Below, one piece after another: positions 10,731-62,685 of a stretch of 64,000 bases of DNA. The DNA lies in IMG/VR virus record IMGVR_UViG_3300044295_000252, positions 66,682 through 130,681 of that record; one strand, written 5' to 3'. The position numbers were made by a program, and so were the translations under genes. Within the stretch, counting starts at the first letter, position 1; the number at the start of each line of letters is the position of its first letter. The notes beneath the pieces are model-generated. The model was given only the letters and a program-made list of their open reading frames with translations. It did no database searches and was not told where the DNA came from. The stretch is from a virus (Duplodnaviria > Heunggongvirae > Uroviricota > Caudoviricetes).

Positions 10731-11094
10731 GATCGAAGAGTTTTTACGTGGCATAGCTGACTTTGAAGCAAATAGACCCACAAATCCGCCGGTGATTAAT
10801 CGCGTACTGTATAACAAAATGACTGGTGCTCTCGTCAAAAAAATCACCGAAGCGTATGAAAATACAGACGACAAATTGGGTTTATTGGATGTGGATCAAA
10901 CCTATATTCATAATGAAAATCTCATGGATAATTTTTGTGTGAAGGCGGGCGCAATTTGTTTAAAAGAACGGCAAACATTAGACTACTCAAAAAAAGTTTT
11001 GATGTCTAGTGACACTGGCAAGTTTACTACAGCCAAAGACAATATGTTGTTTGTTGCAGCAGATGGCGATCGTTATGACCACAGAAAAAATTAA
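10720..11094 (+). CDS. hypothetical protein
   Basis: GGAGA SD before ATG at 10720 (track ORF starts at 10657). 124 aa. Confidence 0.4.
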   Translation: MDNEIEEFLRGIADFEANRPTNPPVINRVLYNKMTGALVKKITEAYENTDDKLGLLDVDQTYIHNENLMDNFCVKAGAICLKERQTLDYSKKVLMSSDTGKFTTAKDNMLFVAADGDRYDHRKN

Positions 11095-18407: not shown

Positions 18408-19485
18408 AAGCCACTTCTTCTACTTCGGTATCTGTAAGTTCAGGATATATTGGTAAACTTAAACAAGTTTTGCAATGTTCATCTGCCATGGGATATTCGT
18501 GTGGTGCAGAATATACATTTAGATCGTAGGCTGGTAGTGGTATTTCATAGGTCAACTTTGTTTCAATTGAACAAGTGGCAAGGAAGTTTTGCAAGGTGTA
18601 TCTGCGAGGAGTATGTATCACATACTTACTATAAGCAGGAGTAATCCTGTTATCATATTGCATAGTTTGCACTACAGGACTTAAAATACTGTCATAATAT
18701 GCTGCAATATCCCGTCTGCGTTCCTGCCACTTTTCAAAGTAGTTATATTTGATCAGCATCTGTGCACAGTCAACTTCGCTCATCCTACTATTAGTGCCAG
18801 ATTCTATATGAGAACCTGCGATTCCATGTTTATGCATACTGCCTACATCCAGTGCTAATTCAAAGTCATCCGTAAGCACCATACCACCATTGCCATAATT
18901 ATTGAAATTTTTCGTAGGATCAAAACTTAAACAGCTGATGGTACCCAAACTGCCGCTGGGTCTATTTTTAAAACTAGCGCCAAAGCTTTGGGCAGCATCT
19001 TCTATTATGGGAATATCATTACCAAAAAACTTTGTTACCAGTTGAAGCTTTTCATAGTCTAATATATTACCATAGAGATTTACATACAGTACGATATCAA
19101 TTTGTTTAGGGTCCTGAATTTTGTCCAGATCCAACAAACCATTGGCATCAATATCGCAAAACACAGGTCTACAACCGGCTTCATATACTGCATTAAGTGT
19201 TGCTATAAAACTAACCGTAGGAACCAATACACGCGGAATGTCTACAGGCCTTCTATTCTTTAAAGCTCTTAGCGCAAATATTAGTGCTTCAGTGCCACTG
19301 TGTACCGGTATGGCATGTGACCTACCGCAATGCCACTTCATTCTGGAGACAAAACGTGGAGAACTTCCGCTGTCCATCAACATGCCGGATTTCAATACCG
19401 CGTCTGTGACCGACAATATTTCTTCGCGTATTCGACTATACTGGCGCGCTATGCCATAAAGAGGTATTTTGTAAGTACCATTCAT
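18373..19485 (-). CDS. PLP-dependent sugar aminotransferase (DegT/DnrJ/EryC1/StrS family)
   Basis: Family-typical N-terminus (IPL.....QY..I..EI..A...VL.SG). LSFDPTKNF..GNGGMVLTDD block with the active-site Lys. Start probably at MNGTYKIPL (19485; track start 19539). Confidence 0.8.
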   Translation of the reverse strand: MNGTYKIPLYGIARQYSRIREEILSVTDAVLKSGMLMDSGSSPRFVSRMKWHCGRSHAIPVHSGTEALIFALRALKNRRPVDIPRVLVPTVSFIATLNAVYEAGCRPVFCDIDANGLLDLDKIQDPKQIDIVLYVNLYGNILDYEKLQLVTKFFGNDIPIIEDAAQSFGASFKNRPSGSLGTISCLSFDPTKNFNNYGNGGMVLTDDFELALDVGSMHKHGIAGSHIESGTNSRMSEVDCAQMLIKYNYFEKWQERRRDIAAYYDSILSPVVQTMQYDNRITPAYSKYVIHTPRRYTLQNFLATCSIETKLTYEIPLPAYDLNVYSAPHEYPMADEHCKTCLSLPIYPELTDTEVEEVASKICKFLQTEP

Positions 19486-20425
19486 AGTATCGTTTAAATC
19501 CTTCTTCCACGTTGATCTGTGGATTAAATTCAAAATCACTTTTTGCTTGTTGGATATTTAAATTTCCTCTACTGGGGTAATTGCCGTCACGATCCAACAC
19601 ATGAATATTTCCGCGACCCACAATATCCACAATCAGCTTTGCCGCTGACAATAAGGTGTGCTGCCTGCAATCACTGCGAGTAATATTGTAGATCTTGCCT
19701 GCGGTATTTGTTGATAACGCAGCCTGTACTATGCCACTAGCAGTATCATCCACATGTGTAAAGTCCAATACCTCGCTGGAACCGTGTACCTTAATGGTTT
19801 CGTCGCGCAGTGCAGAAACTATGAACTTACTTACTACACGGTCTTCCACGTCATATTCACCATAGACCGCACTGGGCCTAATAATCACGTATTCCATGCC
19901 GGTTCTGCGGCTGTAATCCTTTACCAATTGCTCACCAGCATATTTGAGTATTGCATATTGACCCTGCGGTCTACAGGTGTCAGACTCGGTAACTCCACTG
20001 GTAAAGTCACCATATACCATGCTGCTACTAATATAGACAAAACGTTTTACCTTATGCCTAGCAGCGTGTTCAAGCAAGTTTATTAGTCCAGATATCATTA
20101 CTTCCGAAGCATATACAGGATTAATGGCCACAGCTCTTTGCCTAGGAAAACCTGCTAAATGTATTACGGTGTCAGCCGTGGCTCTACAGTAAGCTACATC
20201 AATCAATTTGGTATCAGTAATGTTAAATGCTATGGACTTTGAATTAGTCTTTTTTTCACGTAACTGCATTACCGCATTTAATTGATTTCTTGGCAAAATA
20301 TCGTAATCTGTCCTATTGTCCACGTCATAAACTGTATGACCCTGATCCAATAGTAATTTAACTACATTATGTCCAATAAATCCCATACCGCCTGTAGTTA
20401 AGAAATTCATGTGTCTGTACCCCAA
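19436..20425 (-). CDS. NAD-dependent sugar epimerase/dehydratase (SDR family)
   Basis: GGMGFIGHNVVKLL Rossmann motif. YAILKYAGEQ (YxxxK catalytic dyad). 329 aa. Confidence 0.85.
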   Translation of the reverse strand: MGYRHMNFLTTGGMGFIGHNVVKLLLDQGHTVYDVDNRTDYDILPRNQLNAVMQLREKKTNSKSIAFNITDTKLIDVAYCRATADTVIHLAGFPRQRAVAINPVYASEVMISGLINLLEHAARHKVKRFVYISSSMVYGDFTSGVTESDTCRPQGQYAILKYAGEQLVKDYSRRTGMEYVIIRPSAVYGEYDVEDRVVSKFIVSALRDETIKVHGSSEVLDFTHVDDTASGIVQAALSTNTAGKIYNITRSDCRQHTLLSAAKLIVDIVGRGNIHVLDRDGNYPSRGNLNIQQAKSDFEFNPQINVEEGFKRYYEWYLQNTSLWHSAPV

Positions 20426-36458: not shown

Positions 36459-37172
36459 TTAGAATGCTTTAGCTACAGAAAACACTATTGCATTTTTGTA
36501 AAGTTTTTCACCAGCTACTGTATCTGCTGCCTTGGCTGCTGCACTTAGGCCTAGGTTCTTGTAAACATGAGCACCAACGTCAAGACCTGCAATGTTGTAG
36601 GTTGCGCCTACTTTGACGTCATTGTAAGCAAGATCTTTGTGACTTGAAACAATAGTGCGACCAATATGTGCATTAGCAGTTAGTTTGGCTGCGATGGGCA
36701 TATTCAAATCAGCTTGAACATATTTGCTGTTCTTGCTGTTACTTGCGCCAAAGTAATCGCCCAGTGACTGACTATATTTCACACTTACTGGACCAGTGGC
36801 AACACCAGCATAGACTTCGTGTGTATTACTTGCGCTGTTAAATTTATTACCAGCGCGGCTATAAAAATAGTTATAGCTACCAACATCAACAGTTACGCCC
36901 TTAATAACTTCTTTGCGGAAGCCTGCATAAAGGTCGTTTTCCATGCCAATGCTGTCAGTATAAAGCTGATTGCTTACACTGCTGTTCCAGTTACCAATAT
37001 AGAAGCCACTTTTATCTGCATAGTCAACACCACCCTGCAGAGCTTGTGAATTCTGTGTTTGGCTAATACCACGGAAACGGTAATCGGTAGTTACGCTTAC
37101 ATTACCGGTCACTTGAGCTTGTGCTACTGTGGCCACAAGCAAAGCCATTGCTGCAAAAAACATGTTTTTCAT
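36459..37172 (-). CDS. outer-membrane beta-barrel protein (porin-like; TorF/Gcw_chp-like)
   Basis: Signal peptide MKNMFFAAMALLVATVAQA. VTTDYRFRGISQT motif. Alternating amphipathic beta-strands. C-terminal ...VAKAF with terminal Phe (OMP beta-signal). Confidence 0.65.
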   Translation of the reverse strand: MKNMFFAAMALLVATVAQAQVTGNVSVTTDYRFRGISQTQNSQALQGGVDYADKSGFYIGNWNSSVSNQLYTDSIGMENDLYAGFRKEVIKGVTVDVGSYNYFYSRAGNKFNSASNTHEVYAGVATGPVSVKYSQSLGDYFGASNSKNSKYVQADLNMPIAAKLTANAHIGRTIVSSHKDLAYNDVKVGATYNIAGLDVGAHVYKNLGLSAAAKAADTVAGEKLYKNAIVFSVAKAF

Positions 37173-37376
37173 ATCTATTTCCTTTAATTAAAGTTAATAC
37201 CTTAAACCAATATTTAGTGTATAACAACTGCTGAGAAAAGTAAACAGTTAATTATGCCAAAACAATGGCACATCGAAATGTGCCACTGTGGTAGTTGGGT
37301 AACAAGGCCTATTTCCCGCCCCGTGAGGTTTACGCCGCTAGGCGAAGATCCTCAGAATAAACGTTGTCATTTGCGT

Positions 37377-37574
37377 TTATAGTTTTGCTTCATTAACGAC
37401 GATCGCCTGTCGTGCTGTCTGTTCCGTTACTCCTTGCCCTGTCGAAACCTTGTCACCCCCATCAGAAAGAATCTCTTTCATAACCTCAACTCGTCCATCT
37501 ATGTGTTCGTAAATACCATATTGTATGTTATCACAAACAAATAAGATTCTTCTAAGTTTTGGTTTAGCCTGCAT
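37377..37574 (-). CDS. hypothetical small protein (66 aa; MQAKPKLRRILFV..)
   Basis: Weak. Lies in a ~500-nt mostly noncoding, structured region. Start abuts the tRNA-like 3' element. Confidence 0.25.
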   Translation of the reverse strand: MQAKPKLRRILFVCDNIQYGIYEHIDGRVEVMKEILSDGGDKVSTGQGVTEQTARQAIVVNEAKL

Positions 37575-37587
37575 AAAAAATCCCTTT

Positions 37588-37615
37588 TGGTGGAGGTGAG
37601 GAGAATCGAACTCCT
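37588..37615 (-). ncRNA. tRNA 3'-half-like element (T-arm AGGAG-TTCGATT-CTCCT + CACCTCC-A-CCA); no complete cloverleaf
   Basis: Reverse-complement of 37588-37615 is aggagttcgattctcctcacctccacca. No matching 5' acceptor strand (GGAGGTG) within 500 nt. Confidence 0.3.
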
Positions 37616-37699
37616 GTCCAGAACACATTTTACTTCACTTCATACAGCAATAGACTACAGTATATATTTATTTTTAACCAAGGTCAAATTAAAGTCATT

Positions 37700-38008
37700 T
37701 TATGATTGCGGCTGAAGTTGTTTTTTTAAGTCGTCAACCGTCTTTACTATATCTAATTCCTGTGGTTTGGAATGCGGATTTAATGGTAATGGTAATTGTT
37801 GCCATTCTGATTCTGATACTGAACTCACCAGCGCAAGTTCATAAGCATGACCATCGGAGCCATAAAACTCCACAGTATCAAAACCAACTAAACTGTGCGC
37901 GGCCCGTTCTGCTACACGAGATAATTCCTGCAATGCAGCTGGTTCTGCCACAATATATGCTCTGGTTTTGGGCCCTGAATGCGAATATAAATGTAGTCTT
38001 GCTTTCAT
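37700..38008 (-). CDS. hypothetical protein (102 aa)
   Basis: ATGA overlap with the DnaE-like gene. Confidence 0.45.
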   Translation of the reverse strand: MKARLHLYSHSGPKTRAYIVAEPAALQELSRVAERAAHSLVGFDTVEFYGSDGHAYELALVSSVSESEWQQLPLPLNPHSKPQELDIVKTVDDLKKQLQPQS

Positions 38009-48565: not shown

Positions 48566-49060
48566 TTATTTTGTGATTGGGTTAAGTAGTGGGATAGATC
48601 CCGAAAGATTGATACATTTTTCTAGCAAAAACTTTTCTAGTGCTTTGTGGAAAGTGGCCCTAAATATCCTTTCTCGGCCGCCAATTATAACCGTTTTTTC
48701 TGTTATTTCACATTGTCTTGCCCAGATGCTAACATCTTTGAAGTCTTTTAATGCTTCTCGAACAAATAACATACCTTTGCCACGCCTATATCCTCCCAAT
48801 CTGCAACTGCTATTGGGCGCGGGCTGGTTTAATTCTCCTGAATACCTTATGCCCAAGGGCAGTCCAGATTCTCCAATTCTTACCACGGTTTTACCTTGCG
48901 TGATCAAATACACATTGCTATCATGCGGAGAAAATAATAGATCCAAATTTGCTCTGCAAAAAGACCATTCTAGGTTAGGATGACATACTACATCTGCAAC
49001 ATGTTGAAACCCGTCGCAAATATAATTGTCAATGTTGAAAACTGGATGTATATCAGTCAT
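48566..49060 (-). CDS. hypothetical protein
   Basis: 164-aa ORF. ATGA overlap with the FkbM gene. Confidence 0.45.
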   Translation of the reverse strand: MTDIHPVFNIDNYICDGFQHVADVVCHPNLEWSFCRANLDLLFSPHDSNVYLITQGKTVVRIGESGLPLGIRYSGELNQPAPNSSCRLGGYRRGKGMLFVREALKDFKDVSIWARQCEITEKTVIIGGRERIFRATFHKALEKFLLEKCINLSGSIPLLNPITK

Positions 49061-49851
49061 TCTAACACGCGAACTGTCTTGGGAACCTCAGCGGCCACTG
49101 CAATACTTTTATGTACAAAAAATCGTTCAATACATTTAGGCACACGAGTGTATTCAGTGCCCTCGGCGGTAATTTTACGACTCTTGACATAATATGCAGC
49201 AAAGTCACGCTGAATCATCCAGTCGTAAATGTCTTTGATATCACGCCTAGCACGTTTTAGCGCAGGTTCATAGACCTCCAGTTGCATGATGGGTTTATCA
49301 CGCAGAATGGTCTGCTCTGCACCACGCAACACATCCAGCTCATAGCCCTCGACGTCGATTTTCATGATGTCAACGTCCACTAGGTTCAGCGCGTCCAGTG
49401 GAACGATCGTCATGGTTTCAGTTTTACTGCGAGTTTTGCTGACGTCAGATACCCTAGCGTTGGCGCCGCAGGTATTGCTACTCAGCGTAATCAGTGCCGT
49501 TTCATGCTGCGCGCCAATACCTTGGTTATATGCAGTGACGTTTTTCAAATCGTTTTGTTCAATGTTCTTTTCCAACAGTTTGAACGTATCAGTCACAGGT
49601 TCAAATGCGTGGATATGTTGGCAAAAGTGGCTTAGTGCCCAGGTAATCTCGCCAATATTTGCGCCAATGTCGCAAGCGGTTCTTGCGGTAGGCTTCATGA
49701 ACTTGAGGAAGTTATTGTAGCCTTTGTTCTTGGCTCCGCGAATCACAGTATTTTGCACGTAATCACCGCGTGGTACCCAATAACCAGGTCCATAAGGTGT
49801 GGCAACAAAAATGTGATTGGGATCGTTGTTTAGATGTGCTAGTGGTGTCAT
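49057..49851 (-). CDS. FkbM-family SAM-dependent methyltransferase
   Basis: DIGANIGEITWAL (SAM-binding motif I) and MKIDVEGYELDVLRGAE (FkbM-family signature). 264 aa. Confidence 0.7.
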   Translation of the reverse strand: MTPLAHLNNDPNHIFVATPYGPGYWVPRGDYVQNTVIRGAKNKGYNNFLKFMKPTARTACDIGANIGEITWALSHFCQHIHAFEPVTDTFKLLEKNIEQNDLKNVTAYNQGIGAQHETALITLSSNTCGANARVSDVSKTRSKTETMTIVPLDALNLVDVDIMKIDVEGYELDVLRGAEQTILRDKPIMQLEVYEPALKRARRDIKDIYDWMIQRDFAAYYVKSRKITAEGTEYTRVPKCIERFFVHKSIAVAAEVPKTVRVLE

Positions 49852-49888: not shown

Positions 49889-50227
49889 TCATTGTTTATT
49901 TTTGTTGCTCAAATAGCTGCGCAACAGTCGTTCAATGTTGGCACCACCCACTATATTAGCACTATGCACAGCAAAGTCAAATTCACTGGGCAACACCGCA
50001 TGATCCAGATCCTGCTCTACGATCCAGCGAGCAAAATCCATGCCCGTGGCAACATCAGCGCCGAGATCGTGATCAAAGCTGATGAACTGAGGCCAGCCCT
50101 GTTCTGCAATAATAGTCTGCGCTTCCGCTACACTGCGAGCAATGGTCCACAAGGGCAAGTAACCCTGAGGAAATCGCTCGTCGTCCAGGAACAGAATATA
50201 AGCGTCAGATTTTTTCCTGCGCGGCAT
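49889..50227 (-). CDS. hypothetical protein (possible receiver/CheY-like fold)
   Basis: Start at MPRRKK to abut the upstream gene. ILFLDDE .. SFDHDLG pattern. Confidence 0.35.
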   Translation of the reverse strand: MPRRKKSDAYILFLDDERFPQGYLPLWTIARSVAEAQTIIAEQGWPQFISFDHDLGADVATGMDFARWIVEQDLDHAVLPSEFDFAVHSANIVGGANIERLLRSYLSNKNKQ

Positions 50228-50228
50228 A

Positions 50229-50918
50229 TTAGCTACGCTCCATACGCATACGAGCCAAAAACTTGTTATGCTCGTCGGTTTCAGTTTGTTCGCGATCCGC
50301 CGCAGCTTCCCGACGCTGCATCGCTCGTTCCGCCTGTTCAACTTGTTGCTTAACTGCGACGTCAATCAAGTCCATTTGCACTTTGACGGGACCATAAAGC
50401 GTTTCGTCGTCGCTTTCCAACAGATCATAATACTGCTCTTCTAGCACCATTCGCTGTTCCAGCAAGTTACCCACGTCCTGGCCCAGGTAGGGATTGGCTT
50501 TAGCCGGACCTGTGGGTTCAGCTTCCAGTTCTTCGCGAGTCTTGTCATACCGGGCCCACGCGCCGGCCCAAGCTTTACCGCACTGTTCAGTGGGCATCTG
50601 CGGTTTGGGTTGCGCTGCCTTAGCCTGTGCCACCAGCAGCAATTGCCCAGCGTAGATTTCAATGCGCATCTTGCCTGTGCGATCCAGCATGCGCCAGTAG
50701 GCGATTTGTTTAGTAGTCAAGTAGCCACGGCTCTGATAGAACTTGGCCATGGACGAACCCATACGGGCGTGACAGGGTCTGAATCCCTCGCCATTGCGAT
50801 AGCGAGTTTCTTCAGTGGCTTGCTCGCTGTCAGTTTGACGGTTGTTCAGCGCAACAATAGCACGAGCAACAGCCTTATCATTCTTTTTCAACAGTTCAAC
50901 GATATCTTGTTTGTTCAC
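50229..50918 (-). CDS. hypothetical protein (GTG start)
   Basis: GTG at 50916-50918 with an AGGAGC SD and a promoter cassette. 229 aa. Confidence 0.5.
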   Translation of the reverse strand: MNKQDIVELLKKNDKAVARAIVALNNRQTDSEQATEETRYRNGEGFRPCHARMGSSMAKFYQSRGYLTTKQIAYWRMLDRTGKMRIEIYAGQLLLVAQAKAAQPKPQMPTEQCGKAWAGAWARYDKTREELEAEPTGPAKANPYLGQDVGNLLEQRMVLEEQYYDLLESDDETLYGPVKVQMDLIDVAVKQQVEQAERAMQRREAAADREQTETDEHNKFLARMRMERS

Positions 50919-50993: not shown

Positions 50994-51527
50994 CTAGTCC
51001 TTGAATAGATTGGGGAATTTTTCACCAACAAAATCATGCACTTGCTCTTGGGTCATGTCGCCGAGATCCTTGCCGCCCTGCACTGTCACGGCCCTTGAGC
51101 AGAGTTTCGCCAGTTTCGCACCCGCTACATCGTCATCACAGACCGCCACAGTGACACGCCCCAGTGACCCCATCCAGGGCCGCAATTGCCGGGGATCGTT
51201 GCCCAGAACCGCCACCGCAGGCAAGCCCAGGTTATGCAGCTTACACGCATCAAACACACCTTGGGTCACGAACAATACATCACTGCGAAAGTGCCAAGTC
51301 TCCAAGCCCCAGACCGCCAGCTTGTTTTTGGCCCAGGTAAAGTAGCGACCTTCTCGCGGATCATTGCGACATGTTTTGGGCGCAAAGGGGCGATACTGCT
51401 GATAGCCAGCCCACTGCCCCGACAGATTCCACAGGGCAAAACAAGCGGTCTCATCGTCCCAGCTCACAGTGTAGAGGCTGGGATCAAGTCCGCGTTCCAG
51501 TAGATGTGTCTTAACGTCCATGGCCAT
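50994..51527 (-). CDS. Toprim-domain protein (DnaG-primase-like Toprim only)
   Basis: VTQGVFDACKLHNLGLPAVAVLGNDP ... VCDDDVAGAKLA matches the Toprim E/DxD layout (Glu replaced by Gln). No primase catalytic core. Confidence 0.4.
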   Translation of the reverse strand: MAMDVKTHLLERGLDPSLYTVSWDDETACFALWNLSGQWAGYQQYRPFAPKTCRNDPREGRYFTWAKNKLAVWGLETWHFRSDVLFVTQGVFDACKLHNLGLPAVAVLGNDPRQLRPWMGSLGRVTVAVCDDDVAGAKLAKLCSRAVTVQGGKDLGDMTQEQVHDFVGEKFPNLFKD

Positions 51528-51562: not shown

Positions 51563-52459
51563 TTAGTTACGTATAACCATATGATTTTTTATAATCTTAC
51601 CGTAAAATTCCATTTGTTCGCTGTGCCATAGGTTAAATTGATTGATATTTAACAAATTCATTATTAGCCCAGCACGTTCAGTATCTGCGGCAAAATCCTC
51701 GTCCTTGGATATACGATTAATAAAATTGACCCAGTAAGACTTTTCAACTTGGGACATATTTTTAGGTATAGCAAACAAAGCATAGGCAGTCGTTTTCATT
51801 TCCCTACCAAATGTTTCTTTAAAAGTTGGCACCCCCTGCAGTTGGGCGAATTTATGTTGACTGTTAACAGCCAAAATCTTTACGTTTTTATTGTTTAATA
51901 AGGGACTTATACCTGTCAAATTTGTCATTGAAAAATCAGTTTGTTTAGATAATACACTTAAAACAGACTGCGCGCCGCCGTTATAGGGGATAGGGCGTGC
52001 ACGGACGGATGCAGTTTCTAAAAATTCCAAAATTCCAATATGATTGAAAGACCCAGATGTAGAATACAACAGCTCTTTCCCTTGCATTATTTTTATGAGC
52101 TCATGCACAGTTTTAATTTCCAAAAAACTATGTGCAAACAAAATATTAGGTGAACTGCCTAATACCATTAAATCAAAACGTTCAGAAAAATTAAATGATT
52201 TTTCATCTGAGTAAAGTAAAGGGTCAGTTATGGCGAAACTCATGCCCATAGATATTAAATATCTTTTTTTTACTGCTTGGTCAAATTGTTGAATGGATCT
52301 TCCTTGATTTTGATTGATCACAATAGAATTTTTTTCATATTTTGATATGAGCCTAGCTATGGTATCACTCCAACCACCAGCCGCATATGGCACATAGATT
52401 ACATTTTGAGCGTGGGATATTTGGATAGAAAGCAAGAATAGGAATATAAGTAGCTTCAT
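51563..52459 (-). CDS. TctC/Bug-family periplasmic solute-binding protein-like (signal peptide)
   Basis: Signal peptide MKLLIFLFLLSIQISHA. IYVPYAAGGWSDTIARLISK matches the Bug/TctC N-terminal signature. The gene opens an AT-rich island. Confidence 0.5.
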   Translation of the reverse strand: MKLLIFLFLLSIQISHAQNVIYVPYAAGGWSDTIARLISKYEKNSIVINQNQGRSIQQFDQAVKKRYLISMGMSFAITDPLLYSDEKSFNFSERFDLMVLGSSPNILFAHSFLEIKTVHELIKIMQGKELLYSTSGSFNHIGILEFLETASVRARPIPYNGGAQSVLSVLSKQTDFSMTNLTGISPLLNNKNVKILAVNSQHKFAQLQGVPTFKETFGREMKTTAYALFAIPKNMSQVEKSYWVNFINRISKDEDFAADTERAGLIMNLLNINQFNLWHSEQMEFYGKIIKNHMVIRN

Positions 52460-53331
52460 AATGTTAAATCATTAATTATTTCTTTTACAGACTTAATGGA
52501 ATAAATGTAATCAATCGCGGTTCCAGCCAAAATATGACCTTGAGAGCCGCTGTTTAACCCTGTATATAAACTCTCAGTATGATTCATTTCTTCAGATTCA
52601 ACGTGCGATAAAATTAAGGCATTTTGTTTGTTGTATTTTCCAACCATTTCCTTCACATCTTTACTAAAACTGCTGACAACTTTTAGTTTTGCTTCCTCTG
52701 AAACTTTGCTTTCCTTGGAAAAAGCAAATAATGTTCCAATCCCAACTGCACACGCACCAATTTCCATCAACTGTAATATTTGAGATTTTGAATGTATACC
52801 GCCCGAGGGGATTAAACATTTTTCCGGAAACTTTTGTTTATAATCTATCAGCATAACATCTAAGGAATCTGTTGTGTTGCCTATTCTACCAGCAGCTTTA
52901 GAAGATTTAAAAATTAACCCATCATAAAAATCAAGATTATCTAAATACGATGTACTTTTCAAAAGCACTTTACATCCCAAATTTTTAATTTTTTCAAAAT
53001 TATTTTTCCTTTGTGTTGTGGTGATTTCGGCTCTATGTAATAGTTCACAATGACTAACCATTTTCAAAGCTTCAAGAACGTCATGGGAATTTAAGTTATC
53101 TTCGGGTACACTGAATAATAAATTTTTACCTTTTGATATCTTTTGAAATAAACTTAAATCGTTAACTAGCAAGTTATAATTTATTTTTCCGTTGTTCCTA
53201 TATGAGGACAAGGATAAACTGGGGAATGCTCCGGCTTTGAATACACTCAGAGCCAATTTTAAATCTGAAACACCATTCATGGGTAGACATATGATAGGAT
53301 GTTTACAATCAAAAAAATTTTCACAACTCAT
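52456..53331 (-). CDS. NMO/FabK-like FMN-dependent TIM-barrel oxidoreductase
   Basis: IICLPMNGVSDLKLALSVFKAGAF and GACAVGIGTLFAFSKES resemble the nitronate monooxygenase/enoyl-ACP reductase II family. Confidence 0.5.
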   Translation of the reverse strand: MSCENFFDCKHPIICLPMNGVSDLKLALSVFKAGAFPSLSLSSYRNNGKINYNLLVNDLSLFQKISKGKNLLFSVPEDNLNSHDVLEALKMVSHCELLHRAEITTTQRKNNFEKIKNLGCKVLLKSTSYLDNLDFYDGLIFKSSKAAGRIGNTTDSLDVMLIDYKQKFPEKCLIPSGGIHSKSQILQLMEIGACAVGIGTLFAFSKESKVSEEAKLKVVSSFSKDVKEMVGKYNKQNALILSHVESEEMNHTESLYTGLNSGSQGHILAGTAIDYIYSIKSVKEIINDLTL

Positions 53332-54532
53332 AAAGCTTAGATCTTATTTTAAAAATTGATTTGGGGTACAAGACGTTTTGATAGGAAAAATAATCCTCAA
53401 TCCAATTTGGTTGAATAGTATTACTTAAGTATTTTAAGCCATCTAAAAATATTTTTACTTGAGGTTCGTTACCTTTAGTCCAAAACCATGAATCCCTTGA
53501 ACTAAGGAAATTGCCCGTAATTGATTTAGTTATAAGCCTATTTGATATATCCCAGTAGGGATAAATCAATGTTTTAAAATTGTCTATTTCTAATAATTTT
53601 CTGCCCTGCCACAAAACAAACGCATTCTCGTCTTTTATTGATTGATTTTTCAATGAGTTTCTAATATTATCATTATTTGACAAGAAGTTTTTTATTATAT
53701 GCGCTTGTTTGATAATGATTTTAGCAGAAGCTGAAGTCGGTCCCCAGTAAAACAATTCATTTGATATAGAATTGTGATTTGAAGTTTGTTGTGGTCTTAA
53801 TGAAAAAATCCCATCTATCACATCAAGGAAATAGAAGAAAAATTTGCCATTTTTTATAGTCAATTTAGGCTTTTCTCCGCCCCACAGCAAACACACCCTC
53901 TTGCCGGATTCGGTTATTCTTTGCCATTCCGGAACAAGATTTTCTAATTCACCTTTAGCTTGGCAATATGCGCTGCCATAATTATTGATCCAATGTATGA
54001 AGTCTAATTGCGTATTTTTATTGTAAAATTTTAAGGTTTGTTCGGTGATGTCCAACAACCTTATTTTAGTTTTCAGTTTATATTGTTCAATCAAATTTTC
54101 TATTTTTGGCTTGCCTACGTTAAATACTTCAAAATTATGGAAACTATTTTGATTTCTAGACCCATTCATATTCGTTAAACAACATACTTCATCTAAATAA
54201 ATATTATTTCTAACAAAAGTCTCAAGTATATTGCCCGAATCTGCACCACCACCGTACATCAAAATTATGTAATCAAACCTATGTCTTAATTCTAATGCTT
54301 TGTCAATATAACATGCTTCTAAAGATACGCTGGGTTCCTGTTTCCAATCAAACGAACTAAAAAAATCGTCGTGGTAATGCCAACTTACATCTCGAGGATC
54401 ATTGGTTAAAAGCATTAGATCATACTTATTATTAAATTTTAAGTTTTGAAAAAGATAATAACCATAATAGTCAGTATCTGGCGAAAGAATAGATGTCATT
54501 TTACTAAAATAGTTATTTTGTTCTTGCTTCAT
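53321..54532 (-). CDS. hypothetical protein (403 aa), AT-rich
   Basis: Long ORF. No recognised motifs. Confidence 0.5.
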   Translation of the reverse strand: MKQEQNNYFSKMTSILSPDTDYYGYYLFQNLKFNNKYDLMLLTNDPRDVSWHYHDDFFSSFDWKQEPSVSLEACYIDKALELRHRFDYIILMYGGGADSGNILETFVRNNIYLDEVCCLTNMNGSRNQNSFHNFEVFNVGKPKIENLIEQYKLKTKIRLLDITEQTLKFYNKNTQLDFIHWINNYGSAYCQAKGELENLVPEWQRITESGKRVCLLWGGEKPKLTIKNGKFFFYFLDVIDGIFSLRPQQTSNHNSISNELFYWGPTSASAKIIIKQAHIIKNFLSNNDNIRNSLKNQSIKDENAFVLWQGRKLLEIDNFKTLIYPYWDISNRLITKSITGNFLSSRDSWFWTKGNEPQVKIFLDGLKYLSNTIQPNWIEDYFSYQNVLYPKSIFKIRSKLYEL

Positions 54533-55643
54533 ATTTCTTTATCATAGATTCGTAATGTTTAAAACTTTTTGCTTTAGGTGCACAGACGCCGCAGAAACAA
54601 GTAGGTTTGCGACACTGAATAACGGGTAACGTGTCAGCACTTAGTTGAGTTCGCAATCGATCCAATATAGCATCAGGGTCAGACAAATTACCAATGGGGC
54701 TTACTGTACCATCAAAATTCATTTTACAATCTTTATTGACATAAACATCACCATATACTTGTTTAACGAAAAGAAAGAACCAGTTCACACTGCAATACCA
54801 ACCACTGAACTTATTTTGAACGAAGAAGTCACGTTTTTTGAAGTTTTGATCCATGCAAACTTGTCTACCACCGCAACAGGCTCTGCCCACTTGGGTTAAG
54901 TCAGTTTGCGACTGTTGTGGTGTAATCTCTATGGATGTTTTGTAGCTGTGATCCTTATATAATTGATTAAACCACGCTATCTGCTGCTCATTATATGTGA
55001 AATGTTGCCAATGTGGTGGATGATCCAGTTGTCGCGGCAATGATGCAACATTGTGCTCACGTAACCAAGCCAACATCTGCTGCGCATCAGCAAATAATTC
55101 AGGTTCTGTATGCATTAACACGATACATTTCAATGAACGTCCACTATCGCGCAACATCAGCAAATTATCTCGGAATTGTTGCTTTTGTTTGGCTGAATTC
55201 TCTGTGTGGTAGCTAACCGTAAAGTGGTCAATCAGTGGGATAATGGCACTTAGTTTCTTCTTGGATACAATTGCATTAGTGGTGTTGGCAATACTAAGTG
55301 ACCAACGATCCTGATACTGCTGATGTTTGCTTTTTGCAGCTTGTAATATTTCCACAATGTGAGGATGTGCTAGTGCTTCACCTCCATATACATTTAGGTT
55401 GGCACTTCGCAGTGAAGGCAGTTTATACTGCATGTATAAGTCTGCATATTGATACATAAAGTCCAGACCCTGCAAACATTTCTCTAATGGCGGATGTTGT
55501 GTAGTGTTATCATGTCCACCATTATAACCAGTGCCGCAATAGGTACAGTCCAAATTACACTTTTGGGTTAATTCCCAGTCTAATAAGAATCCCATTTTGT
55601 TATTGGGATCTGGGAATGGTTCAAGGACAGAGAATGATTGCAT
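54513..55643 (-). CDS. Radical SAM enzyme, paralogue 5
   Basis: CNLDCTYC (Cx3Cx2C) near the N-terminus. C-terminal Cys-rich region (CCGGRQVC .. CRKPTCFCGVC) is SPASM/twitch-like. Confidence 0.7.
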   Translation of the reverse strand: MQSFSVLEPFPDPNNKMGFLLDWELTQKCNLDCTYCGTGYNGGHDNTTQHPPLEKCLQGLDFMYQYADLYMQYKLPSLRSANLNVYGGEALAHPHIVEILQAAKSKHQQYQDRWSLSIANTTNAIVSKKKLSAIIPLIDHFTVSYHTENSAKQKQQFRDNLLMLRDSGRSLKCIVLMHTEPELFADAQQMLAWLREHNVASLPRQLDHPPHWQHFTYNEQQIAWFNQLYKDHSYKTSIEITPQQSQTDLTQVGRACCGGRQVCMDQNFKKRDFFVQNKFSGWYCSVNWFFLFVKQVYGDVYVNKDCKMNFDGTVSPIGNLSDPDAILDRLRTQLSADTLPVIQCRKPTCFCGVCAPKAKSFKHYESMIKKYEARTK

Positions 55644-55719
55644 ACTGTAGTTTATAATGTACCACTTGTTAAGTCAAACACATTTATTTAAGTGTTTGTC
55701 TGCTTCTATAAGTAAAAAC

Positions 55720-57024
55720 ATGCCGGATAAAAAGATCTTTTGTAATGTGCCCTGGACCAATACTCATATATACTGGGATGGCGGTTTTGGTGCATGCTGT
55801 AGTGAGAAAACCAAACCCTACACGGAGGCTCAATCACAACAATATAACATAAAGAACATGAATATAGTTCAGTGGTATAATTCAGATGCCATGAAACAAA
55901 TGCGAAACCAAATCAAAAGTTCTGACAAGTTACCTCAGTGCCGTGGCTGTTATCACGAAGAACAGCATGGCTATGAAAGCCGACGTATCAAAGAGAATTT
56001 CAAAAGTGTTATCTTTACTGAGCATAACTTTGATCGCAGTTATCAACAAAGTCCTGGCTATGTTGCATTTGAACATGATGGTGACGCTGAAATGCCTGTG
56101 GATTGGCATGTGGATCTAGGCAATGAATGTAATTTGGCCTGTAAGATGTGCAACCCTAACGCCAGCAGCATCGTAGCAACTCAATACAAACGATGGCAAC
56201 TGTGGGATGCCCCTGTTAATGTAACGTGGACCAGAGACGATGCAGCTTGGAACCGATTCCTGACTGATATAGTGGCAATTGAAAAACTGAACCGTGTGCA
56301 TTTTATGGGCGGCGAACCCGCAATATCCAAACGATTTGTGGAATTTCTCCAATACATGATAGATCACGATAGAACTGATGTTAGCATCAGCTTTGTTACT
56401 AACGGAACCATCATTAACGATAACCTACTTGACTTGTTGCAGCGTTTCAGAACCTTTGACATTGAGGTTAGTATTGAAGCCATGTCAGTTAACAATCACT
56501 ACATTAGGCAGGGCAGCGATACTGAGCAGGTTAAGTCTAATATTCTATATCTAAAAGGTCTACAAAGCGACAAGTTTCATTTGATATTACGCTCGGTGCC
56601 ACAATTGTTAAACGTCAATAACTATGACCAATATATACGCTGGGCCTGGGATCAGCAATTGCCTGTATCTGGAATACCGTTGACAAGGCCAGCACACTAC
56701 GCTATCGCAGTTCTTCCCAGTGATTTACGTGAACGTTTCATACCACAATATCAGGCTTTGACGGCATTTTTACGGACTCAAATAACTGACGCAAATAGAT
56801 TGTATACTGGGCGCAGTGTTAGTGGGCTAGCATCGCAGTTGATACGCGAAGCTGAATCCGTAATTGCTATGTTGCGTTCACCGGAACCCAGCGATGTGGA
56901 ACAATTACGACATGAATTGACTGCAGATATGATGCGTTGGGACACTGTTTACAAATTAAATGCGCTGGATTTTTATCCAGAATACCGAGATTTCTTTTTG
57001 AAATATGGCTACATACCTCACTGA
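55720..57024 (+). CDS. Radical SAM enzyme, paralogue 6 (same family as 14721 and 15820 proteins)
   Basis: N-terminal FCNVPWTNTHIYWDGG..ACC motif. CNLACKMC (Cx3Cx2C). Start placed at MPDKK (track ORF starts at 55657). Divergently oriented to paralogue 5. Confidence 0.7.
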   Translation: MPDKKIFCNVPWTNTHIYWDGGFGACCSEKTKPYTEAQSQQYNIKNMNIVQWYNSDAMKQMRNQIKSSDKLPQCRGCYHEEQHGYESRRIKENFKSVIFTEHNFDRSYQQSPGYVAFEHDGDAEMPVDWHVDLGNECNLACKMCNPNASSIVATQYKRWQLWDAPVNVTWTRDDAAWNRFLTDIVAIEKLNRVHFMGGEPAISKRFVEFLQYMIDHDRTDVSISFVTNGTIINDNLLDLLQRFRTFDIEVSIEAMSVNNHYIRQGSDTEQVKSNILYLKGLQSDKFHLILRSVPQLLNVNNYDQYIRWAWDQQLPVSGIPLTRPAHYAIAVLPSDLRERFIPQYQALTAFLRTQITDANRLYTGRSVSGLASQLIREAESVIAMLRSPEPSDVEQLRHELTADMMRWDTVYKLNALDFYPEYRDFFLKYGYIPH

Positions 57025-57481
57025 CTTTGCCATTACTATAGAACCCATATATGACAACCTGCCGCCAAAGGTACAGGTGGGAATGGATCATGAACTGTCC
57101 ACACTTGAACTGTTAACGACGCATACCTTCATCTATAGTTTAGATTTAGCCGAAGGTTTGCATAGTATATCTGTATCATTAGTAGACAAGCTTAATAATG
57201 ATCGCACTCAAGCGGTTAAGATCACTCGCATAGAATTTGAGGGGATCAGTACCAGCAACATGCACTATGCGGGGCGATATTATCCCAAATACCCACAGCC
57301 CTGGCTAAGTCAGCAAAGGGTTCAACCATCAGCTTGTTTACAGGGCTGTGACTATTTGGGATGGAATGGCACGTGGCAGTTAGAATTTACTGTGCCAATT
57401 TTTACGTGGATACACAAATTGGAACATTTGGGCTGGATATATCACACAGCACCACTTAAATTGCCGTCGCTGGCGTCTTGA
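57005..57481 (+). CDS. hypothetical protein (158 aa)
   Basis: Only + strand ORF in this stretch, downstream of the + strand radical-SAM gene. Overlaps the 3' end of a - strand gene by 26 nt. Confidence 0.4.
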   Translation: MATYLTDFAITIEPIYDNLPPKVQVGMDHELSTLELLTTHTFIYSLDLAEGLHSISVSLVDKLNNDRTQAVKITRIEFEGISTSNMHYAGRYYPKYPQPWLSQQRVQPSACLQGCDYLGWNGTWQLEFTVPIFTWIHKLEHLGWIYHTAPLKLPSLAS

Positions 57482-58234: not shown

Positions 58235-59614
58235 TTAGCCCTGCGCTGCGCGATCGCGGACGGCTTGGAACGTGGTTTGATTCACCAGTTCACCATTGCG
58301 ATAAACCACTTGCAGGAGATCCTTGCTGACTTGGCTGTCGCTGTAACTTACCGTTTGGAAATCACCGCCCGGTTCGCGGATCAGTTGCAGACGACCACGC
58401 TTGCTGCGTTTACCCGAATCCGTAACCGGATCCTTGTAAACATCAACCCAAGCACCGTTGATGTATGCAGACGAACACTTCATAGCAAATTTCAGTGAGT
58501 CGCGATTGATCTGTTGTAGCAAAGCACCACCCTGACCAAAGGCCACGTTGTCTGCACTGTATCCAGCCATTTGCAGGCTCAGCAGGATACCACGGATCGA
58601 AACATCGTCGATGCCATCGCCCTGGATGATACGCACGTTGTTGAGGACGCGATAGCCCTTGCTGTTTACAGTGTGACCAAAATGTTGATCAAGGATACGC
58701 GCACACTTAGTGACCACTTCTGCAGGGTTACCACTGTCAGGACGAATCACGACCATTGCACCACTATCGATCACTTCCTGCTTGAGTTCCGTTCCCCACA
58801 GTTTACAGGCATTGTAAATGTCGTAACTGTCACTGACACAGGCCAGCAATGCACCGGGTTTAGCATACCGGTTCAGCATGTTGCGATATGCATCAACTTC
58901 GTTCTCACGACCCCAGCTGGTAACCGTTGAGTGTTCCATGGCCGGGATACTGAAACCACACACTTCAGCATCGTAGTATTCCATGGCAGCAAGGATACCG
59001 GCCATGGTATCAGTGCCCATGAAGTTCACCAAGTGAGCCGCACCACCCAGGGCCGCGCTTTCCTGGCTGCTGACACCACGCGCACCAAAGTCATGCAGCT
59101 TGAAGTTGATCAGTGCGGGATCACCAGTTTCTTCCAGGCCACGCAGGATGATTTGCCGACTCATGTAGCTGTTGGTGGCCACAGTGGTGGGATACCACAC
59201 TGCGCGAAGCAGGGCAGTTTCCAAGTAGCTGGTGAGCCAGTAACATTTGGGATCGGTGTTGACGATCGTGACCAGCACGTTTTGGGTTTCGATCACGGTA
59301 CCTTCCCGCACTGCGCGGATCTCCACCGGCAGTCGACCGTTGTGTTGTTTGACGATGTATTCCCAGCCCTCGCGATTGAAGGGCTCGCCGTGTGCAGTGA
59401 TAATTTTTTCTGCGATGTCGATGTCCGCCATCGTGACCGGGGTAGTGAGATATTCACGCAGGAAAGCCTGCAGGCCAAAAAACACAGTGCGATCCCAGCG
59501 TCCACCACGCGACTCGATGTAGCTGTAGATGTATTCGGTTCCGGGCGGCATTTGGTTGAATTGCGAACACTTATAGGAATCTGTGTTCAACAGGATATTT
59601 TTTGCTAGTTTCAT
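58235..59614 (-). CDS. nadV: Nicotinamide phosphoribosyltransferase (NAMPT/NadV)
   Basis: N-terminus ..LNTDSYKCSQFNQ.. and overall ~460-aa NAPRTase-family architecture. Paired with the NadM-Nudix gene. Confidence 0.85.
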   Translation of the reverse strand: MKLAKNILLNTDSYKCSQFNQMPPGTEYIYSYIESRGGRWDRTVFFGLQAFLREYLTTPVTMADIDIAEKIITAHGEPFNREGWEYIVKQHNGRLPVEIRAVREGTVIETQNVLVTIVNTDPKCYWLTSYLETALLRAVWYPTTVATNSYMSRQIILRGLEETGDPALINFKLHDFGARGVSSQESAALGGAAHLVNFMGTDTMAGILAAMEYYDAEVCGFSIPAMEHSTVTSWGRENEVDAYRNMLNRYAKPGALLACVSDSYDIYNACKLWGTELKQEVIDSGAMVVIRPDSGNPAEVVTKCARILDQHFGHTVNSKGYRVLNNVRIIQGDGIDDVSIRGILLSLQMAGYSADNVAFGQGGALLQQINRDSLKFAMKCSSAYINGAWVDVYKDPVTDSGKRSKRGRLQLIREPGGDFQTVSYSDSQVSKDLLQVVYRNGELVNQTTFQAVRDRAAQG

Positions 59615-61004: not shown

Positions 61005-62045
61005 TTATTTCCCCAGGAAGAATTGAATGATATCGTAGTGGTCTTCGAAGATCTCTTCGCTGTTCAGCGCACTGATGGGAATCCACCGAGCACATTCTGC
61101 ATCATCCGAGCCCTTTACTTTAGGCAGGTTCCATTCGCCATCATCCAAGCTAATATGAATCGCATGCGTAATGGTTCTGCCACGTTGGCTGCGTCCCGGC
61201 GCATCAAACACGCGATTGCCCACGATGCTGCCACGCAGGACCTTTTCCGGCACTTTGATGCCAGTTTCCTCACGGAGCTCACGCAGGGCTGCATCTTCCA
61301 TGGTGCGATCCGCCACGGCATCCACAAAGCCGCCAGGCAGGGCCCAGAGTCCATTGCCGGGATCAGCACCACGCCGCACCATGAGCACGTGACCCGCTTG
61401 CATGACTACAGCATCGGCAGTGACAAAGATAATGGGATAGGGATATGCAGCCTGTTGCTTCTTGTATTTTTCCAGAAACTCACGCTCACGCACCACTTGA
61501 TTGTATTCAGGGCTGTCCTTGAACCAACGCAGGTATGCCAGGGTAGTTTCCGGTACCACGCCACGGAACCAATTGAGATTGCACAGTTCGGGTGTGAAGT
61601 AAATTTTGCGGATCTCAGTGGCGTTGAGATTTTCAATCAAGTCCTGTTGCACGAAAGTCCACTGCGGGAACATGTTGAGATAGTAGCTGCTGTCGTCTTT
61701 CTTGTGGCCAAACAGTGCCACACTGTCACCATCCTGTGTGTGTCGAGCCACCAATTCCTGCACACGCACCACCCAGGCCGCATCATTATACATGGTGTCA
61801 ATGTTGTGCTCAATGTGGAACCGGGCACCAGTTGATTGTTCAATCTTAGCCAAAGCTTCGATTAGCATGGCGCTGCGTTCACGGCTGAGCCAGGGATTTT
61901 TAAAGGTGCGCGGACGACAGGCGCTGCCCACGATCACTACCACTGTATCAGCTTGTTCGCCAGCACGTCGCAGCATCTCCACGTGGGCGTTGTGGACAGG
62001 TTGGAAACGTCCCACACACACCGCAACATCATATTTCTTATTCAT
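61005..62045 (-). CDS. Bifunctional NMN adenylyltransferase / Nudix ADP-ribose pyrophosphatase (NadM-Nudix, NatV-like)
   Basis: VCVGRFQPVHNAH (HxGH nucleotidyltransferase motif). Nudix box GGFVDAVADRTMEDAALRELREETGI. 346 aa. Confidence 0.85.
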   Translation of the reverse strand: MNKKYDVAVCVGRFQPVHNAHVEMLRRAGEQADTVVVIVGSACRPRTFKNPWLSRERSAMLIEALAKIEQSTGARFHIEHNIDTMYNDAAWVVRVQELVARHTQDGDSVALFGHKKDDSSYYLNMFPQWTFVQQDLIENLNATEIRKIYFTPELCNLNWFRGVVPETTLAYLRWFKDSPEYNQVVREREFLEKYKKQQAAYPYPIIFVTADAVVMQAGHVLMVRRGADPGNGLWALPGGFVDAVADRTMEDAALRELREETGIKVPEKVLRGSIVGNRVFDAPGRSQRGRTITHAIHISLDDGEWNLPKVKGSDDAECARWIPISALNSEEIFEDHYDIIQFFLGK

Positions 62046-62418: not shown

Positions 62419-62685
62419 TGGTGGGCCCTGTAGGATTCGAACCTACGACCAAGCGATTCTGGTTTGTGTGAGTTTCCTCACTCCCTGGACTTTGCCTTCA
62501 CCATTGCTTGCGCTTTAGGTGGGTGCCGTCAAGTCTCTACACGTTCCTATCTCTAGGCTTCGCTCGGCGTTGCCATATGTTACCACTTAGGTTTCACCGA
62601 ATTTGACACCATTCACTCGGGCAGTTTCCTGATCCGGTGCACGATTCCATGAGTCGCCTGCTCTAACCAACTGAGCTAAGAGCCC
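62419..62685 (-). tRNA. tRNA-Ile2 (anticodon CAU, lysidine-type) gene interrupted by a group I intron. Exon 1 is 62649-62685, exon 2 is 62419-62458, CCA encoded
   Basis: Spliced product GGGCTCTTAGCTCAGTTGGTTAGAGCAGGCGACTCAT|AATCGCTTGGTCGTAGGTTCGAATCCTACAGGGCCCACCA folds as a canonical cloverleaf. Its D- and anticodon-arms match E. coli ileX as recalled. Confidence 0.85.
62459..62648 (-). other. Group I self-splicing intron (subgroup IC3, Azoarcus/cyanobacterial tRNA-intron type), 190 nt, inserted after anticodon position 36
   Basis: The 5' exon ends in U and the intron ends in G (omega-G). Core blocks AUGGUGUCAAAUUCGGUGAAACCUAAG, UAUGGCAACGCCGAGCGAAGC and GUGUAGAGACUUGACGGCACCCACCUAAAGC match the Azoarcus pre-tRNA-Ile ribozyme core. 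Confidence 0.8.

Follow-up and report, generated by a model that had tools for sequence, protein, structure and literature searches.

A phage-restricted PP-loop protein family coupled to solute-binding proteins, examined in an AT-rich gene block of an uncultured Caudoviricetes phage

A 64,000-nucleotide stretch of the uncultured Caudoviricetes record IMGVR_UViG_3300044295_000252 (positions 66,682 to 130,681 of that record; hereafter the window) contains an AT-rich block of three minus-strand genes, which encode a TctC/Bug-family solute-binding protein, a flavoenzyme with the fold of FabK and nitronate monooxygenase (NMO), and a 403-aa protein. The 403-aa protein is a member of the PP-loop ATP pyrophosphatase superfamily and belongs to a large phage-restricted family that lies outside all profile libraries. 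Its pairing with a binding protein recurs in hundreds of uncultured phages, and what is new is an unmodelled PP-loop family tightly paired with parts of transporters. The block is best explained, we suggest tentatively, as a phage accessory operon of three translationally coupled genes, which is read jointly with the gene for a radical S-adenosylmethionine (radical-SAM) enzyme upstream of it. The searchable literature on phage TctC proteins, tricarboxylate auxiliary metabolic genes and phage twitch radical-SAM proteins contained no description of such a module; the nearest reports were, for SUP05 phages, a tctA domain hit and, for T4-like environmental genomes, radical-SAM gene counts.

On the minus strand, four overlapping genes follow each other in the order radical-SAM enzyme (54513..55643, 376 aa, GC 0.40), PP-loop ATP pyrophosphatase (53321..54532, 403 aa), NMO-like oxidoreductase (52456..53331, 291 aa) and TctC-like protein (51563..52459, 298 aa), with successive stop/start codon overlaps of 20, 11 and 4 nt. 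The gene calls of a preliminary description made from the sequence alone were borne out for the TctC/Bug-type protein, the FabK/NMO-fold enzyme, two head-to-head radical-SAM genes, and a nearby FkbM methyltransferase (49057-49851; PF05050, 73.6 bits).

Phage loci and contigs (L-numbers below) were compared, and in the 84 that carry the PP-loop family, open reading frames (ORFs) were called and the neighbours clustered. The TctC-like gene was the commonest neighbour, with 39 of 42 such genes directly adjacent to a PP-loop gene, compared to 8.4 expected by random placement. Co-orientation, mostly with 4-nt overlaps, was found in 34 of these 39 pairs, and the PP-loop and TctC-like proteins of the coupled loci were very divergent (15-45% identity). 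In L062 and L080, the gene beside the PP-loop gene encodes a TctA permease (PF01970, 122 and 80 bits); in L072, L087, and L089, genes for an NMT1-type ABC binding protein and permease run into the PP-loop gene, and a DctP-like gene of the TRAP transporter type (tripartite ATP-independent periplasmic) was adjacent to it in nine loci. Other recurrent neighbours encoded a FabK-like flavoenzyme, a second, smaller PP-loop protein, a DUF2061 membrane protein, and a twitch radical-SAM protein, and two or more PP-loop paralogues were present in 35 of the 84 loci. The trio of the window was found in the same order in L106 and L107, both reached starting from the NMO-like protein, and in rearranged versions in L010, L015, L016, and L095.

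Phage TctC-like genes were also sampled by a degenerate DNA pattern, which returned two groups, one adjoining PP-loop genes and the other adjoining large structural genes. Members of the second group, which also carry signal peptides (L169, L171, L172, L174, L176, L177, L179, L182, L183, and L185), were located directly downstream of a gene for a structural-looking protein of about 1,550 aa. Closer inspection of four loci (L171, L176, and L183, and L178 with its high GC) revealed no PP-loop gene near TctC.

TctC-like genes without PP-loop genes would suit an explanation in which the genes of the block are unlinked morons, independent of each other and co-travelling in a recombination hot spot, where the PP-loop protein may serve in nucleic-acid or tRNA modification in the manner of TilS, ThiI, or QueC. 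The same explanation would accommodate the GC patches lying side by side in the window and the NAMPT and primase-like neighbours (described below), which differ completely among relatives. Hitch-hiking alone is unlikely because adjacency is kept across divergent proteins, with identities below 30%, and across three transporter classes; the ratio of 39 in 42, the overlapping codons, and the trio order conserved in L106 and L107 also speak against it. We hold the unlinked-moron explanation to be quite improbable.

The 403-aa protein carries the PP-loop motif YGGGADS (SGGxDS type) at residues 93-99, after the predicted first beta-strand; G95, G96, D98, and S99 were invariant in 10 homologues, and G96 and D98 in 60. 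Its AlphaFold model, built from nine sequences (predicted local distance difference test score [pLDDT] 76.8, predicted template modelling score [pTM] 0.80), showed the Rossmann-like alpha/beta fold common to AsnB, NadE, and GuaA, with AsnB-type enzymes outscoring NadE. The fold corresponds to an AsnB-like synthetase without the glutaminase domain: no match to a class II glutamine amidotransferase domain was detected, and the PP-loop is already reached at residue 93 of 403. The family has its own conserved N-terminal segment (D55, D62-W63, and E66-P67) and C-terminal motifs (IKQxHxxK and RDxWF). The true start of the window protein is possibly Met12 at 54499.

No match to the 403-aa protein was found in Pfam, NCBIfam, or PHROGs. 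The Asn_synthase profile PF00733 did not match the window protein or any of 60 family members at E <= 0.1, the Pfam scan of these 60 members returned spurious single matches only, and family profiles run against the PDB sequences gave nothing meaningful. The family itself is large, with 1,736 representatives of 50%-identity clusters at E <= 1e-3, 791 of them at E <= 1e-30, and 289 relatives in IMG/VR; the matching BFVD structures were all labelled as uncharacterized proteins of uncultured Caudovirales phages. A tblastn search against 50,697 GenBank phage records returned no match, and 185,579 species genomes yielded a single one, on a phage-like contig binned to Polynucleobacter. The enzyme is tentatively predicted, from its fold and motif, to be an ATP-dependent, carboxylate-adenylating amidoligase.

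The TctC-like protein matched Pfam PF03401 (54.5 bits, cut-off 27) and solved binding proteins of the tripartite tricarboxylate transporter (TTT) type, including those for adipate and terephthalate, BugD, and Bug27 (E 4e-11 to 5e-5), among eleven PDB sequences at E <= 0.005. By inspection and hydropathy scan it starts with a Sec-type signal peptide, MKLLIFLFLLSIQISHA/QN, with a maximum 10-residue hydropathy of 3.28, and signal peptides were present in 42 of 42 phage TctC-like proteins. The preliminary description considered an exported Bug-type protein unusual in a phage, which is the case among isolates (one weak match in the 50,697 records), but not among uncultured phages, where the protein is recurrent.

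The 291-aa flavoenzyme matched the NMO-like family PF03060 (47.5 bits, cut-off 28) and is assigned to an atypical phage subfamily of flavin mononucleotide (FMN) TIM-barrel oxidoreductases. Its AlphaFold2 model (pLDDT 93.6) had FabK 2z6i as the top Foldseek match (E 8.5e-17, TM-score 0.80), followed by the NADH:quinone reductase PA1024, nitronate monooxygenases, and FabX. The FMN-binding motifs PIIxxPMxxVS and GGI...GIGT were kept. In FabK and NMO, the catalytic histidine is carried by the GGH motif; at this position the window protein has AAGR and the consensus of 25 phage subfamily members GAGR, and the subfamily has a separate conserved GHIFAG motif. The identification as FabK proper was rejected, since the score for the FabK equivalog TIGR03151 was far below the cut-off (38.6 against 453 bits) and GGH was absent, and the protein was filed as FabK/NMO-fold.

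Carboxylates are the ligand class of the TctC family and of TRAP receptors. The observed folds, motifs, gene coupling, distribution, and composition are tentatively explained by an import-and-convert cassette for a carboxylic acid, in which parts of uptake systems are paired with the phage-specific PP-loop enzyme. The TctC-like protein would be secreted to the host periplasm, capture a carboxylate, and pass it to a TTT permease; this phage would rely on the permease of its host, whereas L062 and L080 encode one themselves. Once the solute is in the cytoplasm, its carboxyl group would be adenylated with ATP and converted to an amide by the PP-loop enzyme, by which the solute would be trapped or transformed, and the flavoenzyme would supply a redox step.

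Several points weigh against the import-and-convert explanation. No TctA or TctB and no multi-transmembrane permease of the right kind was found among the window ORFs, so that import would need a compatible host permease. The second group of TctC-like genes shows that TctC does not require the enzyme, and the flavoenzyme lacks the canonical catalytic histidine. PP-loop genes also adjoin twitch radical-SAM, 2-oxoglutarate (2OG)-oxygenase-like, halogenase-like, and short-chain dehydrogenase/reductase (SDR) genes, a tailoring-like company. All 16 DctP-like partners were without a signal peptide, which does not fit an uptake role and is explained neither by import and conversion nor by the alternatives considered here. 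That the binding protein is exported, what kind of substrate it takes, that this is amidated, and which way the cassette was transferred are inferred from the observations. As to the exchange of the cassette, no donor above 54% identity was found for the trio, and the position of the trio near NAMPT in L106 could reflect old residence with fast divergence.

DctP-like proteins were observed near PP-loop genes in L004, L028, L040, L048, L054, L055, L064, L067, and other loci, and several of their genes were preceded by one for a small DUF2061 membrane protein.

The plus-strand radical-SAM gene (55720..57024, 434 aa) encodes a protein with an N-terminal twitch domain and matched NCBIfam NF033640 over its full length (258.2 bits, cut-off 170); it contains the cluster motif CNLACKMC (CX3CX2C) and an N-terminal SPASM-like match ahead of the radical-SAM core. 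The start at 55720 is the likely one because the match to the NF033640 profile sets in only at residue 26 of the long ORF. NF033640 also includes the left-arm genes at 11958, 14721, and 15820, and to our knowledge no member of this family has a defined reaction. The plus-strand protein had been described as a clear homologue of left-arm paralogues 3 and 4 (14721 and 15820); the common family was confirmed, but the relationship is distant at 23% identity (E 4e-18 and 2e-20), and the duplication between two loci derived from it was overstated, as 23% identity indicates an old divergence.

The left-arm cluster at 11009-20425 comprises four NF033640 twitch radical-SAM genes (11958-17100), flanked by mutually related genes of unassigned function at 11009-11971 and 17082-18407 (26% identical), and continues with a DegT aminotransferase and then an NDP-sugar 4,6-dehydratase/epimerase.

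The minus-strand radical-SAM protein carries CNLDCTYC (CX3CX2C) at residues 29-36 and 11 cysteines in its C-terminal third, a SPASM/twitch-like region that gave no match to a SPASM profile. The Pfam Radical_SAM score was marginally under the cut-off (28.6 against 29.5 bits), and phrog_1802 matched with E 7e-10. The two radical-SAM proteins had been taken for a divergent pair of paralogues; they are indeed encoded head-to-head, but the minus-strand protein is of a different kind, related to the other through the core only (22% identity, E 1.6e-4), and they do not form a paralogous pair. Homologues of the minus-strand protein with 52-57% identity were found in L103-L105, followed in L103 by TctC and PP-loop genes. 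As part of the best explanation, both radical-SAM genes are tentatively considered resident genes of ordinary composition.

The radical-SAM genes are central to a different explanation, a tailoring or biosynthetic pathway in which a small molecule, lipid, or glycan would be made or modified by the PP-loop amidoligase, the flavoenzyme, and both radical-SAM enzymes, possibly jointly with the left-arm twitch radical-SAM, DegT, and 4,6-dehydratase/epimerase proteins. The ligand of the binding protein would then be a precursor or product of this pathway and not a supply for general metabolism. The left-arm sugar genes were confirmed, and PP-loop, DUF2061, and twitch radical-SAM (NF033640) genes were adjacent in L076 and L081/82/85, with the DUF2061 gene as the link between the other two. 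In L102, a PP-loop gene was grouped with a 558-aa radical-SAM protein, four 2OG-oxygenase-like paralogues, an SDR, and an NMO-like gene; in L067-L069, a flavin-dependent Trp-halogenase-like gene (PF04820, 178.6 bits; about 7206-8816 in L068) was located between two PP-loop paralogues of a large phage contig, and NMO-like homologues occurred near genes for acyl carrier protein, fatty-acid desaturase, Rieske protein, and Asp/Arg-hydroxylase. Such company is weak evidence, since the regions in which these accessory genes lie together are hyperplastic. Transporter parts, not tailoring enzymes, were by far the commonest partners of PP-loop genes, most loci with the trio (L106, L107, L010, L015, and L016) were without radical-SAM genes, and in the window the radical-SAM genes differ from the trio in composition. 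A tailoring pathway is regarded as unlikely.

Two other metabolic genes lie 4-8 kb from the trio on the minus strand, a nicotinamide phosphoribosyltransferase gene (NAMPT; 58235..59614, GC 0.525; Pfam NAPRTase 199.9 bits and NAMPT_N) and a nicotinamide mononucleotide adenylyltransferase-Nudix fusion gene (NMNAT-Nudix; 61005..62045), together a phage salvage pair for nicotinamide adenine dinucleotide (NAD). Their proximity raises the idea that the trio extends this pathway, with the TctC-like protein importing a pyridine carboxylate, for instance nicotinate or quinolinate, and the PP-loop enzyme amidating the nicotinate moiety in the role of NadE or a nicotinamide mononucleotide synthetase. The trio is directly upstream of NAMPT in L106, and Bug27 is among the PDB matches of the TctC-like protein; Bordetella Bug27 and Bug69 are described as binding quinolinate (PMC11452294). 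The association did not extend further: NAMPT was not found within about 6 kb in any of the other 84 PP-loop loci, and 61 phage loci selected for NAMPT (1.08 Mb) held no PP-loop, TctC-like, or NMO-like gene. Several divergent pairs of PP-loop and binding protein per genome, as in the 35 loci with paralogues, do not fit a single cofactor role, the better scores of AsnB-type enzymes argue against a NadE function, and the flavoenzyme would be left without a role. Salvage of an NAD precursor is judged very unlikely.

Composition was measured in 1-kb, 300-bp, and segment-length sliding windows across the 64 kb. The preliminary description had noted a sharp drop of GC content at about 51.5-54.6 kb, and this was confirmed by both GC and GC at the third codon position (GC3). 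GC was 0.320-0.334 in 1-kb windows at 52-55 kb, compared to 0.46-0.52 on both sides, and the segment 51563-54532 (GC 0.323, against 0.442 in the rest of the window) was the minimum among all sliding windows of the same length, about 3.9 standard deviations below the 19 non-overlapping windows. The AT-rich string quoted in that description, TTATTTTAAAAATTGATTTGG, was located at 53344-53364. In 300-bp windows, GC was 0.53-0.58 up to about 51.55 kb, fell there to 0.36 directly at the stop codon of the TctC-like gene (51563), and was back at about 0.40-0.43 from about 54.85 kb. The AT-rich segment (51563..54700, GC about 0.32) has a sharp border at this stop codon and a gradual one at about 54.5-54.85 kb, within the 3' end of the minus-strand radical-SAM gene. 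The island had been drawn over 5.5 kb, including the radical-SAM genes; the AT-rich block of three genes stands, but both head-to-head genes have a GC of 0.40-0.41, ordinary for the window.

All codon positions were affected in the island genes, with GC/GC3 of 0.344/0.314 in the TctC-like, 0.321/0.267 in the NMO-like, and 0.308/0.295 in the 403-aa gene, compared to 0.558/0.624 and 0.508/0.515 in the flanking genes. GC3 was thus 0.27-0.31 in the three island genes, against 0.52-0.62 in the flanking genes, and 0.17-0.22 under that of the neighbours. Genes of the PP-loop family in general were AT-richer than their surroundings, with shifts of -0.05 and -0.04 at codon positions 1 and 2 and of -0.006 at position 3 (p = 0.19), which points to an amino-acid effect. 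Such AT-richness across a family can mimic an island, so a check of GC3 is needed. The explanation of the low GC as a mere family trait was partly rejected, since the family shift spares position 3, where GC of the window copy is lower by 0.19; the local anomaly is genuine, the family GC3 shift being only -0.006 and GC3 in the window 0.17-0.22 lower. The window as a whole is a mosaic with GC patches of 0.32, 0.40-0.44, and 0.50-0.56 side by side, and the AT-rich island in itself is ordinary phage mosaicism.

Because the anomaly extends to synonymous sites, a foreign origin of 51.56-54.5 kb is reasonable, and to this extent the proposed horizontal acquisition holds. Nothing pointed to a bacterial donor or to the recent transfer proposed with it. 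The family is essentially restricted to phages, and even its best relatives reach no more than 44-54% identity. The only match in species genomes was the phage-like contig mentioned above, and word-indexed searches for homologues of the TctC-like and NMO-like proteins revealed no close bacterial relative. A near-identity DNA search of 49-60 kb against the 50,697 GenBank phages gave no match. Flanking direct repeats were short and at chance level only, and no tRNA gene and, among the annotated window ORFs, no integrase was present.

The closest relative overall was L106 (GC 0.40), with 54%, 48%, and 51% identity in the trio and the order PP-loop, NMO, TctC, and NAMPT; its NAMPT is 88% identical over the 240 residues held by the contig. 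Within IMG/VR, contigs with a GC of 0.30-0.33 held the loci closest to the island genes, for each of the three, and L016 showed identities of 44%, 40%, and 32% to the island genes. L099, like the window, has the order PP-loop, TctC, and primase-like gene, with the primase-like protein about 79% and the PP-loop protein only 33% identical. L094 shares the primase-like gene with 96% identity in DNA, but the similarity breaks off where the island begins, and within 9 kb of this gene none of the island genes was found. L108 and L109 (NAMPT 90% and 79% identical) have wholly different neighbours, L108 being without the island, and the syntenic L016 and L017 differ by the presence or absence of NMO and TctC. 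Island genes thus occupy conserved positions in part of the related phages, namely, beside NAMPT in L106 and beside the primase-like gene in L099, which is in part what the preliminary description had named as refuting it. These two layouts fit cassette replacement in a hypervariable region better than a one-off import. We tentatively propose that the cassette has been exchanged from phage to phage, probably out of a low-GC phage gene pool, with one cassette allele taking the place of another, and that its insertion point, close to NAMPT and the primase-like gene, is hypervariable. Recent import from a bacterium does not fit these observations, and in this view the cassette has no part in the radical-SAM duplication.

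The Toprim/primase-like gene at the sharp border (50994..51527, minus strand, 177 aa, GC 0.56; phrog_849 DNA primase, E 1.5e-42) spans only positions 147-334 of the primase profile. Splitting of a primase gene by the island was rejected, as the eight relatives all have the gene at an unchanged length (175-179 aa). It is a conserved companion of PP-loop/TctC modules in relatives. It is 72-79% identical in six other contigs with unrelated neighbour genes, and it looks unusually conserved and mobile. The NAMPT and NMNAT-Nudix genes (GC 0.52-0.53) are 85-90% identical to genes of L108 (contig GC 0.536), and together they may form another foreign patch.

The inference of a betaproteobacterial-type host is reasonable and was supported by a transfer-messenger RNA (tmRNA) at 37263-37701 on the minus strand, of the two-piece type of Betaproteobacteria (Rfam beta_tmRNA 117.7 bits, cut-off 84; tmRNA_permuted 144.7 bits), and by the single genome match in a Polynucleobacter bin. 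The tmRNA was also called by ARAGORN, with the tag peptide ANDNVYSEDLRLAA. Phages of Ralstonia and Acidovorax are among the isolates that gave the top matches to the NAMPT. Over a 150-nt piece (37319-37469), the tmRNA shares 85-86% identity with two T4-like contigs of low GC, L012 and L015, in which PP-loop and NMO-like genes are present as well. A group I intron was located at 62466-62660 on the minus strand (RF00028, 55.9 bits, cut-off 50).

The divergent intergenic region between the radical-SAM genes is AT-rich and 76 bp long (55644..55719, assuming the plus-strand start at 55720). Promoter-like matches in it were no commoner than chance, and promoter and terminator scans gave nothing above chance. 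The end of the twitch radical-SAM gene overlaps by 20 nt with a plus-strand ORF of 158 aa (57005..57481), for which no Pfam, NCBIfam, or PHROG match and no homologue in the fetched loci was found. An inverted repeat in the 3' end of this ORF (57282-57362; 22-nt arms, 91% complementary, 37-nt spacer) is located 94 nt before the end (57456) of a convergent 232-aa gene, and a strong terminator-like hairpin directly follows NAMPT (58231-58203, minus strand). Farther out on the minus strand, the ORF at 49889-50365 contains a cREC_REC domain (PF20274, cyclic-phosphate-processing receiver, 77 bits), which may target cyclic-nucleotide signals and makes the ORF an anti-defence candidate. The gene at 36459-37172, also on the minus strand, has a product of the Gcw_chp family (PF09694, 160 bits), whose members are normally outer-membrane-type proteins of bacteria, and shares 57% identity with a gene of L004, a related contig.

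PP-loop enzymes and their binding-protein partners could represent an unrecognised, phage-specific class of metabolic hijack, composed of a secreted high-affinity receptor, a dedicated amidoligase, and sometimes a flavoenzyme, with several paralogous receptor/enzyme pairs per genome and cassettes exchanged among large freshwater betaproteobacterial phages. We consider this wider generalisation conceivable, though on balance doubtful. If it is true, the product may be a specific metabolite for replication or counter-defence, not bulk nutrition. The PP-loop family, with at least 1,700 clusters outside Pfam, NCBIfam, and PHROGs and with transporter parts as its nearly constant companions, provides a testable handle on viral dark matter, and the module hints at what large freshwater phages draw from their surroundings in infection. 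The AT-rich patch is real, yet its donor pool is probably other phages.

Compared with known systems, the phage PP-loop protein shares its AsnB-like fold with the synthetase domain of AsnB and the related beta-lactam synthetase, carbapenam synthetase CarA, and TsnB9. It differs from AsnB in having neither the N-terminal glutaminase domain nor, in the 60 members scanned, detectable similarity to the PF00733 profile, and from AsnB and its relatives in its own N- and C-terminal motifs and its restriction to phages. The flavoenzyme shares the FMN TIM-barrel fold and the FMN-binding motifs with FabK and nitronate monooxygenase, but has GAGR for GGH, its own GHIFAG motif, and a shorter chain of 291 aa. 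The plus-strand gene is a full member of the NF033640 twitch proteins, but stands beside the cassette and outside the AT-rich block.

The TctC-like protein has the Pfam family, the PxxGG N-terminal motif, and the signal peptide in common with TctC/Bug proteins (BugD, Bug27, the adipate-binding 5oei, and the terephthalate-binding TBP), whereas the phage members are virus-encoded and very divergent, with 15-32% mutual identity. In contrast to TTT systems, the window contains neither tctA nor tctB. Few phage auxiliary genes have products that reach the host periplasm, and the textbook case is cyanophage PstS, which is encoded by the phage, binds phosphate in the periplasm, and works with the PstCAB permease of the host. 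Like PstS, the TctC-like protein is a phage-encoded binding protein that bears a signal peptide, comes without a permease of its own, and is presumed to join a transporter of the host. It differs in belonging to the TTT and not the ABC type, in its probable carboxylate ligand, and in the tight coupling of its gene, which PstS does not show, to genes for a cytoplasmic ATP-dependent enzyme and a flavoenzyme.

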